Positions 1-46,821 of a stretch of DNA of 64,000 nt are shown here, piece by piece. Below the pieces are notes generated by a model. That model was not told where the DNA came from. It saw nothing but the letters and a program-made list of their open reading frames with translations, and did no database searches. The position numbers and the translations under genes were made by a program. Source of the DNA: Candidatus Bathyarchaeota archaeon. GTDB taxonomy: Archaea; Thermoproteota; Bathyarchaeia; Bathyarchaeales; Bathycorpusculaceae. The stretch spans positions 384,001 to 448,000 of the forward strand of contig OY970176.1 of the NCBI GenBank assembly GCA_963707955.1, read 5' to 3'. Numbering within the stretch: the stretch's first letter is position 1; each line of letters starts with the position of its first letter.

Positions 1-166
1 CAGTGACTGCGTGAGCCCGCGCGCGCGATGTGTGCGCAATAAGGCGCTGTGGGCCATAGTGGTTGGCAGAAAGACATAACTCAACTCTGCTGTAAATTGG
101 AGATTAGCGCGCGCGAAAGTCTTTTAATGAGAACCTGACTCGCTTGATCTTGAGGAGCCATTCAAC

Positions 167-1660
167 TTGCGAAATGACGTCATACTCACTGCTGATAGCA
201 CGCTGATGAGTAATTATCGTCGCAACGAATTCTTGGGCTTCGGCACATGCGCGCCTCCGAACTTCATTCCGGACGAGCTATACAAGTGGCTTTTCTTCCC
301 TCCCATCCAGCAGGTAGATGACGTTCCGGCAGCCGCCCCGTACGGTTTGAGAAAGATCGAAGCTCAACTATTGAGCGAAGGATTCGACGTTCGAACCGTT
401 TCGCCTAATCATCTTAAGAATCATGTGGCCGAAGCGAAGGTGCTAGGCATACACGTCATGGACCCGTTTGGCTTAGGACCCGCCTCAAGCACCTTGGCAT
501 TTATTCTTAACAAAGAGCCATTCCTTGCCAAGTACTTTCGCGTGTTGCTAAGTCAGCCGCCGGTTAGAAAGGCAAAAAAGAACGGCTTGAAAATCATCGT
601 AGGGGGACCTGGAGCCTGGCAGTGCCGATACAGGCCAAAGTTTGTTGACAAATACGGGATCGACTGCATAATCGCAGGAGAAGCCGAGAAGTTTGTTGGA
701 AAAATCTTCAAAGCGGCTATCGAAGGCCAGCCGGTACCGAAATATTACGAGTCCAACATCGAAGAGAGCCCAAAAGTGGAAGAGATTCCTGAAATCGTCA
801 ATCCTTCAGTAAACGGCCTGGTAGAAATTGGCCGAGGATGCTGCAGAGGCTGCAAGTTCTGCAGTGTAACGATGAGGGCTTTGCGTTGGTACCCGATGGA
901 AAAGATCCTCCGTGAAATCGACGTGAACATGAAGGTCGGTGGCATAGAAGGAACAATCCTCCATGCGGAGGATGTCATGCTCTACGGCTCCAAGAACACT
1001 TCGCCAAACGGTGAAAAACTCATCAAACTGCATGAAACGGTCGTCAAAAAATGCAAAGGAGTGACGTGGAGCCACTGTTCGCTGGCGGCTGTTGCAGCGG
1101 AACCGAAGCTTTTCTCAAAGACGGCCGAAATCATAAAACAGAAACAACCATGGTGGGGAGTTGAAATAGGCATTGAAACCGGCTCTCCGAGGCTGATAGG
1201 GAAAATCATGCACTTGAAGGCTCACCCGTTCAAGCCCGAAGAATGGCCCGAGGTTGTCCGAACAGGAATGGGGCTAATGCACGACAACGGACTCGTCCCT
1301 GCTGGCACGTTGATCGTGGGAACTCCTGAAGAAAAAGAAGAGGATCTAATAAAAACCATGGAACTACTAGACGACCTAAAGGGGATGAGAAGCCTCATCG
1401 TGCCACTATTCTTCGTTCCCATGGGAACACTGCAACATGAAGACTGGTTCAAAGGAACACAAATGACAGACCTGCACCGAGAACTGCTGATAAAGTGTTT
1501 TCAGCATGATTATTACTGGCTCTATAACCTAATGGATATGGCATTCGCTGGAAGATGGCAGGGAAAAGTGCTAGAGCCTTTCTTCAAGCTCTTCGCATAC
1601 ATAGTGAAATTCAAAGCAAGACAGTCTGGAATCAACCTTACTGTCGACGAACAGACTTAA
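167..1660 (+). CDS. B12-binding/radical SAM domain protein
   Basis: GRGCCRGCKFC (CxxxCxxC); N-terminal IIVGGPGAW and GEAE cobalamin-binding-like segment; GIETGS motif. Confidence 0.85.
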   Translation: MRNDVILTADSTLMSNYRRNEFLGFGTCAPPNFIPDELYKWLFFPPIQQVDDVPAAAPYGLRKIEAQLLSEGFDVRTVSPNHLKNHVAEAKVLGIHVMDPFGLGPASSTLAFILNKEPFLAKYFRVLLSQPPVRKAKKNGLKIIVGGPGAWQCRYRPKFVDKYGIDCIIAGEAEKFVGKIFKAAIEGQPVPKYYESNIEESPKVEEIPEIVNPSVNGLVEIGRGCCRGCKFCSVTMRALRWYPMEKILREIDVNMKVGGIEGTILHAEDVMLYGSKNTSPNGEKLIKLHETVVKKCKGVTWSHCSLAAVAAEPKLFSKTAEIIKQKQPWWGVEIGIETGSPRLIGKIMHLKAHPFKPEEWPEVVRTGMGLMHDNGLVPAGTLIVGTPEEKEEDLIKTMELLDDLKGMRSLIVPLFFVPMGTLQHEDWFKGTQMTDLHRELLIKCFQHDYYWLYNLMDMAFAGRWQGKVLEPFFKLFAYIVKFKARQSGINLTVDEQT

Positions 1661-2069: not shown

Positions 2070-2356
2070 CTATTCCCCCAGCGCGCGCGCTCGGGATATC
2101 TTCTTCCTTATATAATAAAGAGGTCAAACGAAGATATTAAGATGTATGGAGCTGTCTTCTATCCTCGCCTGATCTGAAAACTCGGGAACGTTCATGCGCC
2201 CTCGCGCGCGCGGGAAAATTATCCTAAAGTTTTACCCTTAGGGGAATTCTATAGATTATCGCCTCGCTCTTGGGTTGGAGCAGGCGTCTCTTAGAACGCG
2301 CTACGAAATCATAATGATCATCCGCTTATTCATGCACGCACAAGAGGAATCGAAAA

Positions 2357-3997
2357 CTATGCTTCCATACTAGAAAAGAGTTTCTTTACACCTCGCATGC
2401 AATAGTGACGCATCAACACAAGAAACAATGTTCCAATTGCCAATGTCAATATAATTGTCAACAATACTGATCCAGTTGCTCCGCCTCCCAACCCAGTTAA
2501 TAATCCCGTGCCTTCGTACAAAATCAAAGGAGTTAGAATCGCCACCGTAGCCAAGCCTCCCAAAACGAAGGCCACTATGAATCCTGTAAACGTAAGGTAT
2601 CTTGCTCTTGGTCCAACGTTAAAGCTGGGATATCGTGAGCCTGTTCCAAGCCCCACATAACCCTGTATTATCATATTGAAGGCCGCAGCAACCAAAGTAG
2701 CCAAGAACTGCCCCGCCGCAACAGGAGCCAGGAACTGCATGAGCAAAGCGATTGCCACGATGCCTGCCCCTGAAAAAATCCACGGAAGAAAAAGCTTTCC
2801 GAGAACCAATTCGTCAGCCGAGATGGGAAGCATATAGATGTTAGCGATCGAGTTTCCCTCCTGTCCTATACTAATTGAAGAAAGCATCATAGGCAGAATA
2901 AGCGATGTTTCAGCCAGAAGAACCAGACTCACGCCCGACAAAGCTTCCCCTGGATTCGCGCCGCTTGTCAACACTGGGAGCAAGGAGGCCACTACAAGCA
3001 ACACGGGTATGGCCAAGAACCTTGCCATTTCCCTCCGTCTCGCGAGGGATCTCAATTCTTTGGAGGCTACTGCGAACGCGACGGAGTCAAGCCACAAAAA
3101 TGATTTTCCTTGAGGGACATAGACGGTTGATGTGGATAAGGTAATGGTGACAGGTATGGGAGACCAATACTTGGCTCTTAGTCGAGTTGCAGCTTCAAAA
3201 ATCAGGAACGTGAAAAAGAGGGAAAGCAGGGCAAAAATGGTCGCTCTAGCCATATCCGGAGTCAGGAAGGACACGATGGCGACTGAAGGCCAGATTACAG
3301 GCAGGAACCAAGCCAAGCTGACGCCCGCCGCTATGCCTGAAAGGGCCGTGTAAAGAATGTATGGGTTAAACGCTATTTGCACCGCGACCAACAAAACGAC
3401 GACGAGGGCAATGCGTAATATGACGCCGAGTCTTCCGCTCTTCTTGTAAAGCGTGGTGGAGATACGGTTCATCACGGATCTCAACGCCTCCACTATCACT
3501 GCTCCCCAAACATAAGCCATGACAGAAATCAAAATGAAAAAGGGAACAACCGAAGACTCACCGAAGTTCAGAGCGAGCGGTATGGTGACCCCCAGACCAA
3601 TAAACAAAAAGGGCGAATAGGTGAGCTCCAACGAAACGCTTGACGCCACAACATATTCTATAGGAGACACTGGAAGCCAATTCACCGCTTCGCTCGAGGC
3701 AAGACCGCCCGTCTGCCCAAGCTCAAACAGTATCCCCGCCAAAATAACCGCCGAAGTGAGAATGACCGGCAGCACAATGAGGGACTGAACTGCGACCGGT
3801 CGAAACGAATTCATTAAATCAGCAGGAACCAAAGGGAGAGCATACACTAGAAACCCGAACGGAACGGCAAAAAGAACTATGTCAACAGCAACTATTATGA
3901 GGGGATTTGAAAGGCGACTTCTCCGCCCATAACGGCTCGCTCTGAAGTATGATTTGAAGAGAACAGTTGCGAGGCTTTTGACCGTTGACCATTTCAA
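2357..3997 (-). CDS. ABC exporter permease (multi-TM)
   Basis: 546 aa, many hydrophobic segments; overlaps the ABC ATPase stop codon. Confidence 0.75.
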   Translation of the reverse strand: MKWSTVKSLATVLFKSYFRASRYGRRSRLSNPLIIVAVDIVLFAVPFGFLVYALPLVPADLMNSFRPVAVQSLIVLPVILTSAVILAGILFELGQTGGLASSEAVNWLPVSPIEYVVASSVSLELTYSPFLFIGLGVTIPLALNFGESSVVPFFILISVMAYVWGAVIVEALRSVMNRISTTLYKKSGRLGVILRIALVVVLLVAVQIAFNPYILYTALSGIAAGVSLAWFLPVIWPSVAIVSFLTPDMARATIFALLSLFFTFLIFEAATRLRAKYWSPIPVTITLSTSTVYVPQGKSFLWLDSVAFAVASKELRSLARRREMARFLAIPVLLVVASLLPVLTSGANPGEALSGVSLVLLAETSLILPMMLSSISIGQEGNSIANIYMLPISADELVLGKLFLPWIFSGAGIVAIALLMQFLAPVAAGQFLATLVAAAFNMIIQGYVGLGTGSRYPSFNVGPRARYLTFTGFIVAFVLGGLATVAILTPLILYEGTGLLTGLGGGATGSVLLTIILTLAIGTLFLVLMRHYCMRGVKKLFSSMEA

Positions 3998-4758
3998 AGC
4001 TTCAATGCCTCAACAATCTTCTCCGTGTCCTCACTGCCCGTAAGCTTCAGGAAAGTATCCTCCAACGTTGAACCGGGCATCCCAGCCTTTGATCTCAGTT
4101 CCTGCACCGTCCCCTCGGCAATGATGCTTCCCTCATTCATGATAGTAATCCTGCTGCACATGGCCTCTGCAATTTCAAGAATGTGTGTACTAAACAGAAT
4201 TGAAACGCCTTCGCCAGCCAAGCGCTGAAGGACATCCTTAACGATCTTGGCTGACCTAGGATCTAAACCGTTCAACGCTTCGTCCAATACGAGGGCACGT
4301 GGACGATGAAGCAGAGCCGCCGTAATTGCTATTTTTTGCTTCATTCCTTGGGAGAAGCCGCTCATAACCTCATTCACGTGCTCATTCATTTGCAGCGCCT
4401 TAAGCAGCTCATCAACCCTCTCTCGCCGAACCTTCAGGTCGATGCCATACGCCGTGCCTACAAAGTCCAAGTACTCCGAAGCCGTCAGGTACTCATAAAG
4501 ATACGGCAATTCCGGAACATAGCCCACAAGTCTTTTCGCCTCGATAGGCTGCCGCAACACGTCCACGCCGCAAAGGCTGATCTTGCCATAATCAGGCTTA
4601 ACTATACTCATGACCATCTTCATGGTCGTGCTTTTCCCCGACCCATTCGGACCGAGAAGACCATGAACCTCACCCGGCAATACGGAAAGTGTCAGATCTT
4701 TTACAGCCACGTTATCACCGAAGGATTTCGTCACAGATTCTAGCATTATCCCGTCCAT
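3994..4758 (-). CDS. ABC transporter ATP-binding protein
   Basis: GPNGSGKST Walker A, FSQGMKQK signature, LVLDE Walker B, STH switch. Confidence 0.95.
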   Translation of the reverse strand: MDGIMLESVTKSFGDNVAVKDLTLSVLPGEVHGLLGPNGSGKSTTMKMVMSIVKPDYGKISLCGVDVLRQPIEAKRLVGYVPELPYLYEYLTASEYLDFVGTAYGIDLKVRRERVDELLKALQMNEHVNEVMSGFSQGMKQKIAITAALLHRPRALVLDEALNGLDPRSAKIVKDVLQRLAGEGVSILFSTHILEIAEAMCSRITIMNEGSIIAEGTVQELRSKAGMPGSTLEDTFLKLTGSEDTEKIVEALKL

Positions 4759-4921
4759 AAGTTATCCCAAACCTCATTCCCAATGTTTCCAGGCGCACTA
4801 CCACGGCCCACTGAACGAGCATACTTTGTTTTAAACTTTCTTTTTTGGGTATATAGCTTAATCTTTTTCGCCGTAGCGCATGACCTCAAAGCCCAGTTCG
4901 CGCGCTAACATAGAGATAAGG

Positions 4922-5075
4922 CGTATACTCGATTCCGATAATCTCCATATACGTAGCCTATTATGATGATTTCTACTCTCCCCCTCTTTCCATTACCACA
5001 AACACCTAGCATGGCTGAACCGAGTGTACTGCCCTGACAATGGCCAACTTTTCCCACAGCAGGGCATCATCGTCA
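4922..5075 (-). repeat. ~150-bp structured element, inverted copy of 10068-10219
   Basis: shared blocks TGACGA(C/T)GATGCCCTGCTGTGG, CATTGTCAGGGCAGTA(T/C)ACTCGGTTCAG and an exact 19-mer TATCGGAATCGAGTATACG. Confidence 0.85.
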
Positions 5076-5077
5076 CG

Positions 5078-6161
5078 TAGCGCGCATGCGTGTTCCTAAA
5101 TTCGATTTCTAATTGTATCAGGTGAGTCGCGTATCTCTCTCTTGAGGTGAGTCATGAGGAGATACGAGACTCTTGAGACCTTGTTTGGCAAGGTCGACTT
5201 ATCCTTTGCTGAGACAGTGCTTAATGAGACTTACCATGCGAAGGATTCTGTCGGCAGACCACCTAGAAGCCCTCTTGGCGTCTTCAAGGCTCATTTGCTC
5301 AGAAGGCTGAGGCACGTTCCAAGCGACAGGATGCTCGTGAGGCAGATGTGGAAGGACCCGAGGTTGAGGCGAATCTGTGACATAGAAGAAAATGAACCTC
5401 CATACGGCATAGCTGTCCTGTCTCGATTCAGGAGTAGGGTTGGGCCTGAAAGGCTGATGCGAATCGTTGATCACGCCATCGAGACGCTCGTAGAGAAAAG
5501 AAGAATCAAAGGAGAAACCTTGGCTTTGGATTCAACGTTCATCAAAGCGTGTAGCCGTCGAAACCTTGACAATCGTACAGGCTACAGTGACCCTGAATCG
5601 AGGGTTGGAAGAGCAGTCAAAACGAGAGATCTGGGCTACAGGCTTCACTTGGCCGTGGACTGTCGAAGCGAATTGCCCGTTGCTATGACGGGCCCCGGCA
5701 AACGAGAACGAGAAGAAACACTCTCTCAAGCTGCTTGAGAAGGCTTCACGCCACGTGAAACCTGAGAGGTTGGTTGCTGACCCACAGTACAGTTCCCAGA
5801 GCCTGCGAGACGCAGCCCTTGAGCAAGGAACGGTGCCTGTCATTCCTTACCCGCGAAACCAGCAGAAAGGCGTCAAAGGTGTTCTCAGAATCGACAGAAA
5901 ATTCAGGAGCCACGGGCCTCAACAGCTCAGACGAGCCTACAGAAGGCGCGCGGCAGTCGAACGAGTCTTCAGCAGACTCAAGAACCTCGCAGGCTTAACC
6001 CTGCACAACCTGAGAGGACTGGTCAAAATAACGTTGCACGCTCAGCTCTGCCTGCTCATCATGCTCTTCACAGCCCAAGCCGCCATAAACACGCACAGAC
6101 CAAGCAAAGCCCGAAGCATAAGATACTTCGCAAACTAATTTCGGAACACACATGCGCGCTA
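5078..6161 (+). mobile_element. insertion sequence (IS5/IS1182-like DDE) with terminal inverted repeats
   Basis: 5078-5102 TAGCGCGCATGCGTGTTCCTAAATT versus reverse complement of 6137-6161 TAGCGCGCATGTGTGTTCCGAAATT (23/25); the outer GCGCGC may be duplicated target. Confidence 0.9.
5154..6138 (+). CDS. DDE transposase, frameshifted near 5691 (ORFs 5154-5738 and 5755-6138)
   Basis: GRPP, ALDST, GYRLHLAVD, LVADPQY and YRRRAAVERVFSRLK motifs; the alternative frame reads APANENEKKH across the break. Confidence 0.85.
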
Positions 6162-10055: not shown

Positions 10056-10067
10056 AACCAACCAAAC

Positions 10068-10219
10068 TGACGACGATGCCCTGCTGTGGAAAAAGGCAGT
10101 CATTGTCAGGGCAGTATACTCGGTTCAGAGCATAGTACTTGATCTCTGCAAAAGAGGTATTACGGGAAATCAGATCATAATAGGGTAGAGATATAGGTAG
10201 TATCGGAATCGAGTATACG
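10068..10219 (+). repeat. ~150-bp structured element (candidate ncRNA or folded DNA site)
   Basis: stems TGCCCTG/CAGGGCA and GTATACTCGGTTC/GAATCGAGTATAC; second copy at 4922-5075. Confidence 0.8.
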
Positions 10220-10280
10220 GTCGCGTCAATTCCTTTTCAAGAATCTACCATAGGATGGCTGTATCTTTTTTGAGACGTCT

Positions 10281-13953: not shown

Positions 13954-14282
13954 GGATTCAGTTATTGACGTTGTGTCAAAAGCAGTTCTCAGTACGTGCA
14001 CTGACGTCATGATTTAAGGCTGAAAGACTTCTCTTGCTTGTTTCCTGCATAACAAATTATGTAACGCGCGCGCTAATCGTAGAAAGTCCAACCTTCACTT
14101 GTCCTTGGATATTGGTTCTCCTTCTCAGAAGATTGACAAAGGGATTGTCCAAATCTCGCATCTCTTCGTTTATTCCCTCAAAAAAGAGGTGCGGGGCTCT
14201 ACTCATTACGCTTCAGCGAATTTAGGAACAGGCATACGCGCTGAAATATGATAACGTTTAAACTTTACCAAACCCCAGATCA

Positions 14283-15480: not shown

Positions 15481-15699
15481 CCAGATCACCCCTTTCGAAC
15501 TACTACGAAGGCAAAAATTAACCTTACCCTTAGCGCGCGCTAGCCGCTTAGATTGTCCTATGGAAAACAGGTCCCATATTCTAACGCGAGGCAGCACCCA
15601 TTACGATAGCCAGTAGCGCGCGTCTGTTTCTTCACGGCTGGTTACACCCCAACATTGCTATCGGCATTACTTGTAAGAAACAGTTTTCGCCCGCGCGCG

Positions 15700-26341: not shown

Positions 26342-26496
26342 AAAACTTCATCCTTTTCTTGTCTATAATTACACTGCAAGGACAGCCGCGTGGCTGGATA
26401 TAAATTTTTTTCAGAATTCGGCTGGGTCGCGCGTTGCCTTGTCCCCAAAATGGTTAAAAATGGTTACAAGTCCGTTTTTGCCTATTTAAACCTATA

Positions 26497-43150: not shown

Positions 43151-43702
43151 TTGAGCAAGAAAGTCGTGACTCTTGAAGAGCGCAAGGCCGAGGTCTTGAT
43201 CAAGCTCAGAGGATACAAACTCCTCAAGAAACAGAAACGCGAAGATGCTGTTGAATACTTGGTTGAGATTCCAAGGGACAAGCAGAAGGCCGTCGTTTGG
43301 TGCGTCCCAGGTGAGACCACCGTAGGCATAAACAGCATAAACCGTCTTGCGAAAGCCATGAAAGACGCTGACATGGAAAGTGGAATAATAGTCACTGACG
43401 GAAGATACACGCACGCCGTTAAGCAGGGTGCTAGGAAAAAGAAAATTGAGCTCCTGCCCAAGACATTCCCCGCCTTCGACCTTTTTCAACACAGGCTTGT
43501 TCCGAAGCATGAAATTCTGACTGAGGAAGAGAAAACGGAGCTCCTGTTGAAGTACAGGGTGCACCCGTACCAGCTACCTCAGATAAGCTCGCTGGACCCA
43601 ACCGTCAAGGCGATAGGAGCCAAGCCGGGAGACATACTGCGGATAATAAGAAAAAGCCCGACAGCCGGCGAGCACCTAGCGTTCAGATACGTTGTAGAAT
43701 AG
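43151..43702 (+). CDS. rpoH: RNA polymerase subunit Rpo5/RpoH with ~110-aa N-terminal extra domain
   Basis: C-terminal HRLVPKHEIL..QLPQI..DP..GAKPGDILRIIRKSPTAG..FRYVV. Confidence 0.85.
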   Translation: MSKKVVTLEERKAEVLIKLRGYKLLKKQKREDAVEYLVEIPRDKQKAVVWCVPGETTVGINSINRLAKAMKDADMESGIIVTDGRYTHAVKQGARKKKIELLPKTFPAFDLFQHRLVPKHEILTEEEKTELLLKYRVHPYQLPQISSLDPTVKAIGAKPGDILRIIRKSPTAGEHLAFRYVVE

Positions 43703-46142: not shown

Positions 46143-46821
46143 TCGTTGGGGCCACCAAAACAAGTTTGAAATGCGTGTTCAAAGGAAATTAAACATTCTG
46201 TATTCTAGATTCTGTTCCTGTAGACATGTACAGCAGATCTACAGGAGCACTTGGAACTGCCTGACCGTTGCCAATCCCGTCTGTTTCCTCTGTTATTAAC
46301 ATTTTTCGGCTGCATCTGCCAACCTGGATGTTTGATCTTTGTCTCGCGTCTTGCCTAGATGAGTAAAACATTGCTCGTTTCGTTTTTCCTCGTTTAACAA
46401 ACCCTACGCCTTCCCTAATCAGTTTTCAGCACACATGACTATCCTGGAGTACTTTCGCAGAGGCCTATGCGGAACTTGGCATGTCCTGGCCAGTAACGCA
46501 AGACTTTCCTCAAGATAGATGCCATCCGGGCCGATGCGTGGGCGCGCTTTTGCTTTTCTGATTCTGTTTTCTTTTTGAGGTTCGAACGACTTATCTAGGC
46601 TTTTCAGCGCGCTAGCGCGTTTCTAAATTCTTTCGGAAAGCAGCTTGCGCTACTCATTCTGCTCTCTTCAATCATATTTGGATCATATAGGATACCCGGG
46701 GAGGAGGGTGTGAGCACGAAAGCATCCAGCCGAACCGTGACAGTAACCATCGAAAAACGTCATGCCTTCCCCTTGAATGAACCTAGAAATTCAGGAACAA
46801 ACATGCGCGCAATATCCAGCG

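Follow-up and report, generated by a model that had tools for sequence, protein, structure and literature searches.

An insertion sequence (IS) that sits at the centre of a short palindrome made only of G and C raises the question of whether the element chose that palindrome, carries it as part of its own ends, or generates such palindromes. We address this question for an IS in a Bathyarchaeia genome (Candidatus Bathyarchaeota archaeon, GCA_963707955.1), using 64,000 nt of contig OY970176.1 (positions 384,001 to 448,000), referred to as the window; coordinates without a locus name are window positions. The answer we consider probable is that this inactivated 1.07-kb element belongs to a clade of DDE transposase ISs that, together with MITEs (miniature inverted-repeat transposable elements) sharing their ends, insert specifically into runs in which G and C alternate, duplicating 4 bp. 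The typical target would be an intergenic 8-mer, GCGCGCGC, often flanked by A or TA. The IS would thus be site specific but otherwise ordinary, with an unusual and very strict target.

The observation behind the original prediction of an IS inserted into a GCGC palindrome at 5078..6161 holds: TA-GCGCGC, two 17-nt inverted repeats, and GCGCGC-TA read as claimed, and Pfam detects the DUF772 and DDE_Tnp_1 domains between them. The IS itself is 1,068 bp long (5086-6153), its 17-bp inverted ends match at 15 of 17 positions, and it is flanked by TAGCGCGC on one side and GCGCGCTA on the other. Short terminal inverted repeats, a length of about 1 to 1.5 kb, and a single transposase gene give it the layout of the IS5 group. 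That gene is broken in this copy. Open reading frame (ORF) 5154-5738 scores 42.3 bits against DUF772 (PF05598; cut-off, 23.1; residues 34-102) and 18.3 bits against DDE_Tnp_1 over profile positions 5-64, the latter score falling under the cut-off because the gene is split. The frame at 5689-6138 scores 56.2 bits against DDE_Tnp_1 (PF01609; cut-off, 23) and covers positions 56-199 of the 200 in the profile. The protein of intact relatives reads ...AMTVAPANENEKKH... at the deletion site, and a Y-x2-R-x3-E-x6-K stretch, which we take to be the IS5/IS1182 signature around the catalytic E, was read by eye in the translations of the window's C-terminal part and of an intact relative (...AYRRRAAVERVFSRLK...). 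A protein search yielded 612 relatives, and the 120 listed are 82 to 94% identical to ORF 5154-5738; the majority of those 120 are single proteins of 328 aa, and the intact relatives carry PF01609. The window copy therefore reads as a pseudogene inactivated by a 2-bp deletion. Programmed frameshifting was considered and rejected, as the deletion lies inside the catalytic domain by comparison with four related copies and the relatives are single ORFs.

Classification proved less exact. Two intact 328-aa relatives (P0001 and P0010) fell below every cut-off among the curated NCBIfam IS models, scoring 142 and 140.5 bits against the IS1182 model (cut-off, 270) and 99.6 and 99 bits against the IS5_4 model (cut-off, 140), with the remaining models lower. 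The best NCBIfam models for the window's two transposase fragments were IS1182 and IS5, again all under the cut-off. We have therefore filed the element under the IS5/IS1182 superfamily, as a putative divergent Bathyarchaeia clade rather than a member of one curated family.

A genome scan located 22 related loci, of which 21 are titled Bathyarchaeota or Bathyarchaeia and 1 Nitrososphaeria, with 46 to 90% amino acid identity; 21 of the 22 also match the window IS at the DNA level (70 to 90% identity). In the window and the related Bathyarchaeia metagenome-assembled genome (MAG) loci, 20 complete elements could be delimited (16 ISs and 4 MITEs), the IS relatives being 1,032 to 1,081 bp long. Comparing the flanks of other copies had been proposed as a check on the window IS, and it supports the claim. 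Among the 40 flanking hexamers, 34 are perfect GCGCGC, 5 carry one mismatch, and 1 carries two. Perfect hexamers stand on the left of 19 of the 20 elements (the other reads ACGCGC), on the right of 15, and on both sides of 14. The element boundary always falls directly before the RTG or TGC of the terminal repeat, and 39 of the 40 flanks are within one mismatch. This association of the hexamer with the element ends is far beyond chance. Sequence beyond the hexamers is unrelated between copies, and the insertions are therefore independent. Departures from the hexamer are one-sided and affect mostly its outermost base, on which 4 of the 8 variant positions fall.

The pattern that would have spoken against a palindromic target, namely the same ends with unrelated duplications outside them, is absent. 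In the 19 elements with both outer flanks available, direct repeats beyond the hexamers never exceed 2 bp; the longest is 2 bp in 4 elements (TA in 3 of them) and 0 to 1 bp in the rest. An obligatory TA duplication was rejected on the same material, since TA stands on both sides in only 3 of the 19. Two readings are left after this check: either the hexamers are target DNA that includes the duplication, or the element duplicates nothing. The MITEs follow the same pattern. The one at 46613-46804 carries the terminal repeats of the parent IS and the same target flanks and has no transposase gene. A second MITE family, with a related but distinct terminal repeat, is represented by a complete copy at L005 9429-9720 with GCGCGC on both sides and by one end in the window at 26435.

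The hexamers become informative when set beside the unoccupied motif. Removing the IS together with one GCGC had been predicted to restore the motif, and it does: the product, TAGCGCGCGCTA, is present exactly at 15531-15542 and with one mismatch at five more window sites, giving 6 matches versus 0.09 expected. The 6-bp alternative yields TAGCGCGCTA, as stated in the original prediction, and this is absent from the window. The 8-mer GCGCGCGC occurs 21 times in the window versus 0.65 expected from 100 dinucleotide-preserving shuffles, a 32-fold enrichment. Maximal alternating-GC runs of 6, 7, 8, 9, and 10 nt number 17, 7, 17, 3, and 4, and other dinucleotide repeats almost never reach 8 nt. Five of the window's 8-mers are in the CG phase. 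In 349 kb, unoccupied runs of 4 to 10 nt number 1,126, 217, 70, 25, 37, 8, and 8, respectively; 53 of them are 8 to 10 nt long, and none of at least 11 nt was found. We built a position matrix from IS ends outside the window (99.9th percentile in the window, -4.0). Sequence scoring above this percentile lies beside none of the 24 window runs of at least 8 nt, and IS-end-like sequence occurs beside runs of exactly 6 nt only, two of which are variant hexamers. Occupied sites thus consist of 6+6 nt, whereas empty sites peak at 8 nt.

The unoccupied motif is largely intergenic: about 18 of the 24 window runs of at least 8 nt lie between chosen ORFs, and several others are close to the end of an ORF or inside one that is short or doubtful. 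Position counts revealed no consensus past about 2 flanking bases. The motif is an uninterrupted 8- to 12-nt palindrome without a loop and, as judged from sequence without folding, lacks the stem-loop of repetitive extragenic palindromic (REP) sequences. Its distribution is uneven. The runs form sub-kilobase clusters, and 22 of the 24 long ones lie in the first 27 kb of the window, although that part and positions 27001-64000 hold similar amounts of intergenic DNA (6.3 and 6.5 kb). Among the ordinary chromosomal genes at positions 1-27000 are those for a class I tRNA synthetase, radical SAM enzymes, and ABC transporters. Motif frequency also differs between related genomes. Comparing the window with itself by blastn-short detected a single repeat pair, here called REP-X, and the GC runs are therefore not the ends of a repeat family recognisable at that sensitivity. 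Nothing in our analyses accounts for the enrichment, the sharp 8-nt peak, the clustering by region, or the breaks in synteny between the window and locus L012 close to GC runs.

We propose that the transposase would bind the 17-nt terminal repeats, cut at the hexamer|RTG boundary, and attach the ends at points staggered by 4 bp on either side of a run's central GCGC; repair would then duplicate GCGC and leave GCGCGC on each side. This proposal depends on where the element ends, for which distant relatives offer a calibration. A tblastn search of plasmids with an intact relative hit two records at 26 to 28% identity, among them one from Halococcus (L024; 26%, E = 7e-12) whose element has a perfect 17-nt terminal repeat. 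The flanks of the Natronococcus copy (L025) are unrelated to those of L024, and the common terminal repeat starts exactly where homology starts; the termini of these two elements are therefore defined without assumption. No distinct terminal repeat could be discerned for a Sphingopyxis match from the tblastn search. Anchored at the hexamer boundary, the Halococcus 17-mer aligns without gaps to both window ends at 10 of 17 positions, a score reached by 0.26% of window positions, and the TGTTC and AATT blocks lie at the same distance from the tip in the Halococcus 17-mer and the window repeats. Alignment in the same register gave 11 of 17 for both the second MITE family and the L022 relative (46% identical) and 8 of 17 for the second end of the MITE. 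The L022 relative has no GC hexamer ahead of its terminal repeat. Moreover, A or T directly borders the run at 25 of the 39 occupied ends and 42 of the 64 unoccupied ones. Because of the in-register haloarchaeal repeat, the 6+6-nt occupied versus 8-nt empty runs, and the equal preference for an outer A or T, we infer that the hexamers are part of the target DNA, with the probable cleavage point at hexamer|RTG.

The best-surviving alternative, which we regard as unlikely, makes the hexamers, or their inner 2 to 4 bases, the outermost bases of the element's own inverted repeats, with the duplication absent or very short and the likeness to (GC)4 secondary. The palindromic hexamer would lengthen the inverted repeat to 23 to 25 nt, and its constancy (34 of 40 perfect) next to variable positions 1 to 5 of the 17-nt repeat (ATG, GTG, or TGC and the next two bases) looks like the common arrangement of conserved tip, variable linker, and binding block. 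Such ends would easily explain loci in which the IS is present and unoccupied 8-mers are lacking, and the window and the 22 loci revealed no empty site. In contrast, the haloarchaeal and L022 relatives, which have no GC hexamer, align in register with their terminus directly after the hexamer, and target DNA better accommodates the one-sided variants at the outermost base, the flank runs of 5, 7, and 8 nt, and the A/T preference that occupied and unoccupied runs share at their outer border. It would also be unusual for an IS5-type DDE element to make no duplication.

On the reading that the hexamers belong to the target, the two flank runs taken together bear on how long the duplication would be. 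Summed flank runs in 19 elements are 12 nt in 9 elements, 11 in 4, 13 in 3, and 14, 9, and 6 in 1 each. With a 4-bp duplication, sums of 12, 11, 13, and 14 imply targets of 8, 7, 9, and 10 nt, and unoccupied runs of these lengths, numbering 37, 25, 8, and 8, stand in similar proportions. A hand calculation of log-likelihoods from the run counts puts 4 bp (about -20) ahead of 2 bp (about -24) and 6 bp (about -26.5). The one-sided outermost-base variants and the equal outer A/T are also consistent with a 4-bp duplication bordered by nonduplicated outer bases. We therefore favour a 4-bp GCGC duplication inside (GC)4 as the best fit. We found no usable table of duplication lengths for IS5/IS1182 elements in the literature. 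Marginally less likely than hexamers belonging to the element is that the same site-specific IS duplicates 6 bp (target GCGCGC) or 2 bp (target (GC)5). The junctions would be the same as for 4 bp, 6-mers and 10-mers both occur unoccupied in the 349 kb (70 and 8, respectively), and the relatives have no fixed duplication length. However, with 6 bp the one-sided variants would have to arise after insertion, yet they cluster at the outermost base, and many insertions into the commoner 8-mers would be expected with a flank sum of 14, which was seen in 1 of 19. A 2-bp duplication needs targets of 11 to 12 nt for 4 of 17 elements, and none is unoccupied in the 349 kb.

The original prediction also suggested that the transposase uses the motif as a safe harbour or generates it as a footprint, and the two halves fared differently. 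The motif is almost wholly intergenic, so insertion would rarely break a gene, and a script found that 15 of 19 restored sites are crossed by no open frame of at least 100 codons; both the motif and the insertions fit a gene-sparing safe harbour. A further possibility, improbable in our view, is that the motif and the transposase family form a self-maintaining system in Bathyarchaeia. Either transposition cycles or a transposase relative might seed and spread (GC)4 runs, which would become gene-sparing harbours and rearrangement breakpoints, or the transposase might recognise a non-B (Z-DNA-prone) structure rather than a sequence. Most improbable is that the (GC)4 motifs are excision footprints or adjacent-deletion scars of the IS/MITE family rather than pre-existing targets: this would explain their abundance and intergenic position, their concentration in the first 27 kb, their varying frequency among related genomes, and the truncated ends that abut GC runs (window 14065-14241; L015 16970), but a retained flank pair would give (GC)6 and no run reaches 11 nt in the 349 kb, no IS-end remnant lies beside any window run of at least 8 nt, density shows no clear decay away from ISs (1.17, 1.85, 1.61, and 0.80 motifs per 10 kb at 0 to 1, 1 to 2.5, 2.5 to 5, and 5 to 10 kb), the window holds about eight unoccupied motifs for each element, and the CG-phase 8-mers are not predicted by the phase of the IS.

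Several observations weigh against a clade of ISs that targets (GC)4 runs with a 4-bp duplication, the reading we prefer. The intact relatives score under every curated NCBIfam IS cut-off, and the terminus calibration rests on a 10/17 match to relatives that are 26% identical. Those relatives give no consistent duplication length, since the L024 copy has a perfect 13-bp direct repeat and L025 has none. The hexamer is more conserved than positions 1 to 5 of the terminal repeat, as a catalytically essential IS tip would be. As the target is both a perfect repeat and a palindrome, duplications of 2, 4, and 6 bp give identical junctions. An all-against-all blastn comparison of the window and the 22 loci revealed no empty site, so the target and the duplication are deduced from occupied sites only; the sole orthologous block (window 2342-4793, L012 5075-7529) stops before the IS with no alignment of the intergenic DNA beyond, and the L008/L009 block has diverged too far next to the IS to show one. 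TA stands outside the left hexamer in 12 of 20 elements versus 5 of 19 on the right (Fisher p = 0.054), or 10 of 16 versus 5 of 15 for ISs only (p = 0.16), an imbalance not expected of a strictly symmetric target. Several loci have the IS but no unoccupied run of at least 8 nt in up to 20 kb. Two hexamer-flanked elements, an IS and a MITE, stand within 1 kb in both L005 and L009, in DNA otherwise without 8-mers; targeting of GC runs would need clustered targets in such motif-poor DNA. Apart from these, the clustering, the IS loci without long runs, and the synteny break with L012 near GC runs favour some causal link between the IS and the motif.

Two of these points come with further observations. 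The TA asymmetry, statistically marginal, may reflect an orientation preference; TA beyond the transposase-upstream hexamer (12 of 20) is commoner than at unoccupied 8-mers (17 of 64). The block shared with L012 comprises two genes, is 86% identical, and has GC runs within about 130 bp on both sides (2203-2212 and 4899-4905); gene order differs outside it, and IS copies lie 0.3 and 2.4 kb past it in the window and L012.

Features of the IS, its relatives, and its probable target motif (window positions unless a locus is named)
Feature	Position	Strand	Basis and remarks
Putative left target half	5078..5085		Sequence reading; TA 5078-5079 and GCGCGC 5080-5085; would form the left portion of a TAGCGCGCGCTA site whose inner GCGC is one duplication copy
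Left terminal inverted repeat (IRL), 17 nt	5086..5102	+	Sequence reading; ATGCGTGTTCCTAAATT
Transposase, N-terminal part	5154..5738	+	Pfam; 194 codons, DUF772 and start of DDE domain; ends early at the frameshift
2-bp deletion splitting the transposase gene	5691..5692	+	Alignment to four related IS copies; 2 nt missing after ATGACGG
Transposase, C-terminal part	5692..6138	+	ORF 5755-6138, frame open from 5689; +1 frame, rest of DDE domain; stop codon overlaps IRR
Right terminal inverted repeat (IRR), 17 nt	6137..6153	-	15/17 identical to IRL; ATGTGTGTTCCGAAATT on the reverse strand
Putative right target half	6154..6161		Sequence reading; GCGCGC 6154-6159 and TA 6160-6161
Isolated left end, about 88 nt, from a related IS subtype	14154..14241	-	Homologous to left ends of L005, L020, and L006; then variant hexamer GCGCGT read towards the end
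Unoccupied full motif	15531..15542		TAGCGCGCGCTA; no IS-end-like sequence beside it
End of second, related MITE family	26429..26470	+	Similarity and end scoring; terminal repeat TGCCTTGTCCCCAAAATGG..., preceded by variant hexamer GCGCGT
192-bp MITE of the window IS family	46607..46810		End scores 5.5 and 14.9; MITE 46613-46804, GCGCGC at 46607-46612 and 46805-46810
Halococcus plasmid relative	L024 538-1675		Perfect 13-bp direct repeat flanking

Further structures were seen around these elements. REP-X, a repeat of about 165 bp, has window copies at 4906-5077 (minus strand) and 10066-10222 (plus strand); the first directly abuts the left flank of the window IS. It has an internal inverted repeat (TGCCCTG...CAGGGCA) and no Rfam match, the only Rfam families in the window being three tRNAs. 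At L017 2263-6769, an IS copy holds about 3.6 kb of inserted DNA between IS positions 593 and 749 and still has GCGCGC at its outer ends. At L015 16961-16995, a second-family MITE terminal repeat is cut after 14 nt and joined straight to a (GC)4 run, its outer flank being GCATGC, not GCGCGC. A possible decayed MITE lies at window 18-254, where (CG)5 precedes ATGTGTG and, about 220 bp on, ...TTCGGCACAT precedes GCGCGC; it contains a GC 9-mer at 107-115 and scores weakly against the terminal-repeat matrix. At L022 4560-4700, a minus-strand tRNA-like sequence with GC-run-containing sequence inside adjoins a truncated IS fragment. Elsewhere in the window, the gene at 43151-43702 (plus strand) fuses the C-terminal domain of the RNA polymerase subunit Rpb5/RpoH to an N-terminal Mrr_cat/NA-iREase1 restriction-endonuclease-like domain (Pfam E values, 3e-28, 4e-9, and 3e-8).

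Homing of ISs to abundant intergenic palindromes is known in bacteria and, if our reading is true, extends to a divergent IS5/IS1182-like clade in uncultured Bathyarchaeia, with a target of alternating G and C only that is unusual for such ISs. Our literature searches, Bathyarchaeia ISs included, turned up no account of this IS or of a GCGCGC(GC) target, and none of the motif in archaea. Targeting of GC runs would explain contig breaks and hexamer-flanked repeats in these Bathyarchaeia MAGs, give an annotation rule for delimiting the IS and its MITEs, and offer a natural, very short integration site. It would also make the origin of the motif testable, as a mobile element is now tied to a 32-fold enriched, regionally clustered palindrome like TAGCGCGCGCTA.

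Among known systems, the nearest in layout is IS5 of Escherichia coli, which shares with the window IS a single DDE transposase of about 330 aa with DDE_Tnp_1 and DUF772 domains, a length of about 1.1 to 1.2 kb, and short terminal inverted repeats. IS5 duplicates a short sequence-specific target of 4 bp (PMC11677980), and the window IS would likewise duplicate a short specific target. IS5 uses an A+T-containing tetranucleotide, whereas the target here would be a G+C-only alternating run of about 8 nt, and intact relatives of the window transposase stay under the cut-offs of all IS5 and IS1182 NCBIfam models (at best 142 versus 270 and 99.6 versus 140 bits).

In behaviour, the closest parallel is with ISs that target palindromic REPs. 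Such ISs come from five families including IS5, and ISRm22 inserts on the axis of the palindrome with a 6-bp direct repeat (PMC1525189). Examples are ISRm22 (IS4), ISPsy8 and IS1397 (IS3), ISPpu9, ISPpu10, and ISPa11 (IS110), and ISNm1106 (IS5). The likeness lies in all or most copies occupying a fixed point of one abundant intergenic palindromic repeat, with many copies of the repeat unoccupied. Unlike REPs, the target here is 8 to 12 nt long, without a stem-loop and with no consensus past about 2 flanking bases, and the host is archaeal (Bathyarchaeia).

Closer in host, the relatives on plasmids of Halococcus dombrowskii (NZ_CP095007.1) and Natronococcus sp. (NZ_CP132295.1) have a transposase of similar length (339 aa; 26% identical) in an element of about 1.1 kb. 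They differ from the window IS in having no GC hexamers, with a 13-bp direct repeat in one and none in the other. The PIF/Harbinger transposons and Tourist-like MITEs of eukaryotes offer a more distant parallel, combining IS5-related DDE transposases with a short, duplicated target of palindromic type and many MITEs; unlike that of the window IS, the PIF/Harbinger target is a 3-bp A+T sequence, and the hosts are eukaryotic.

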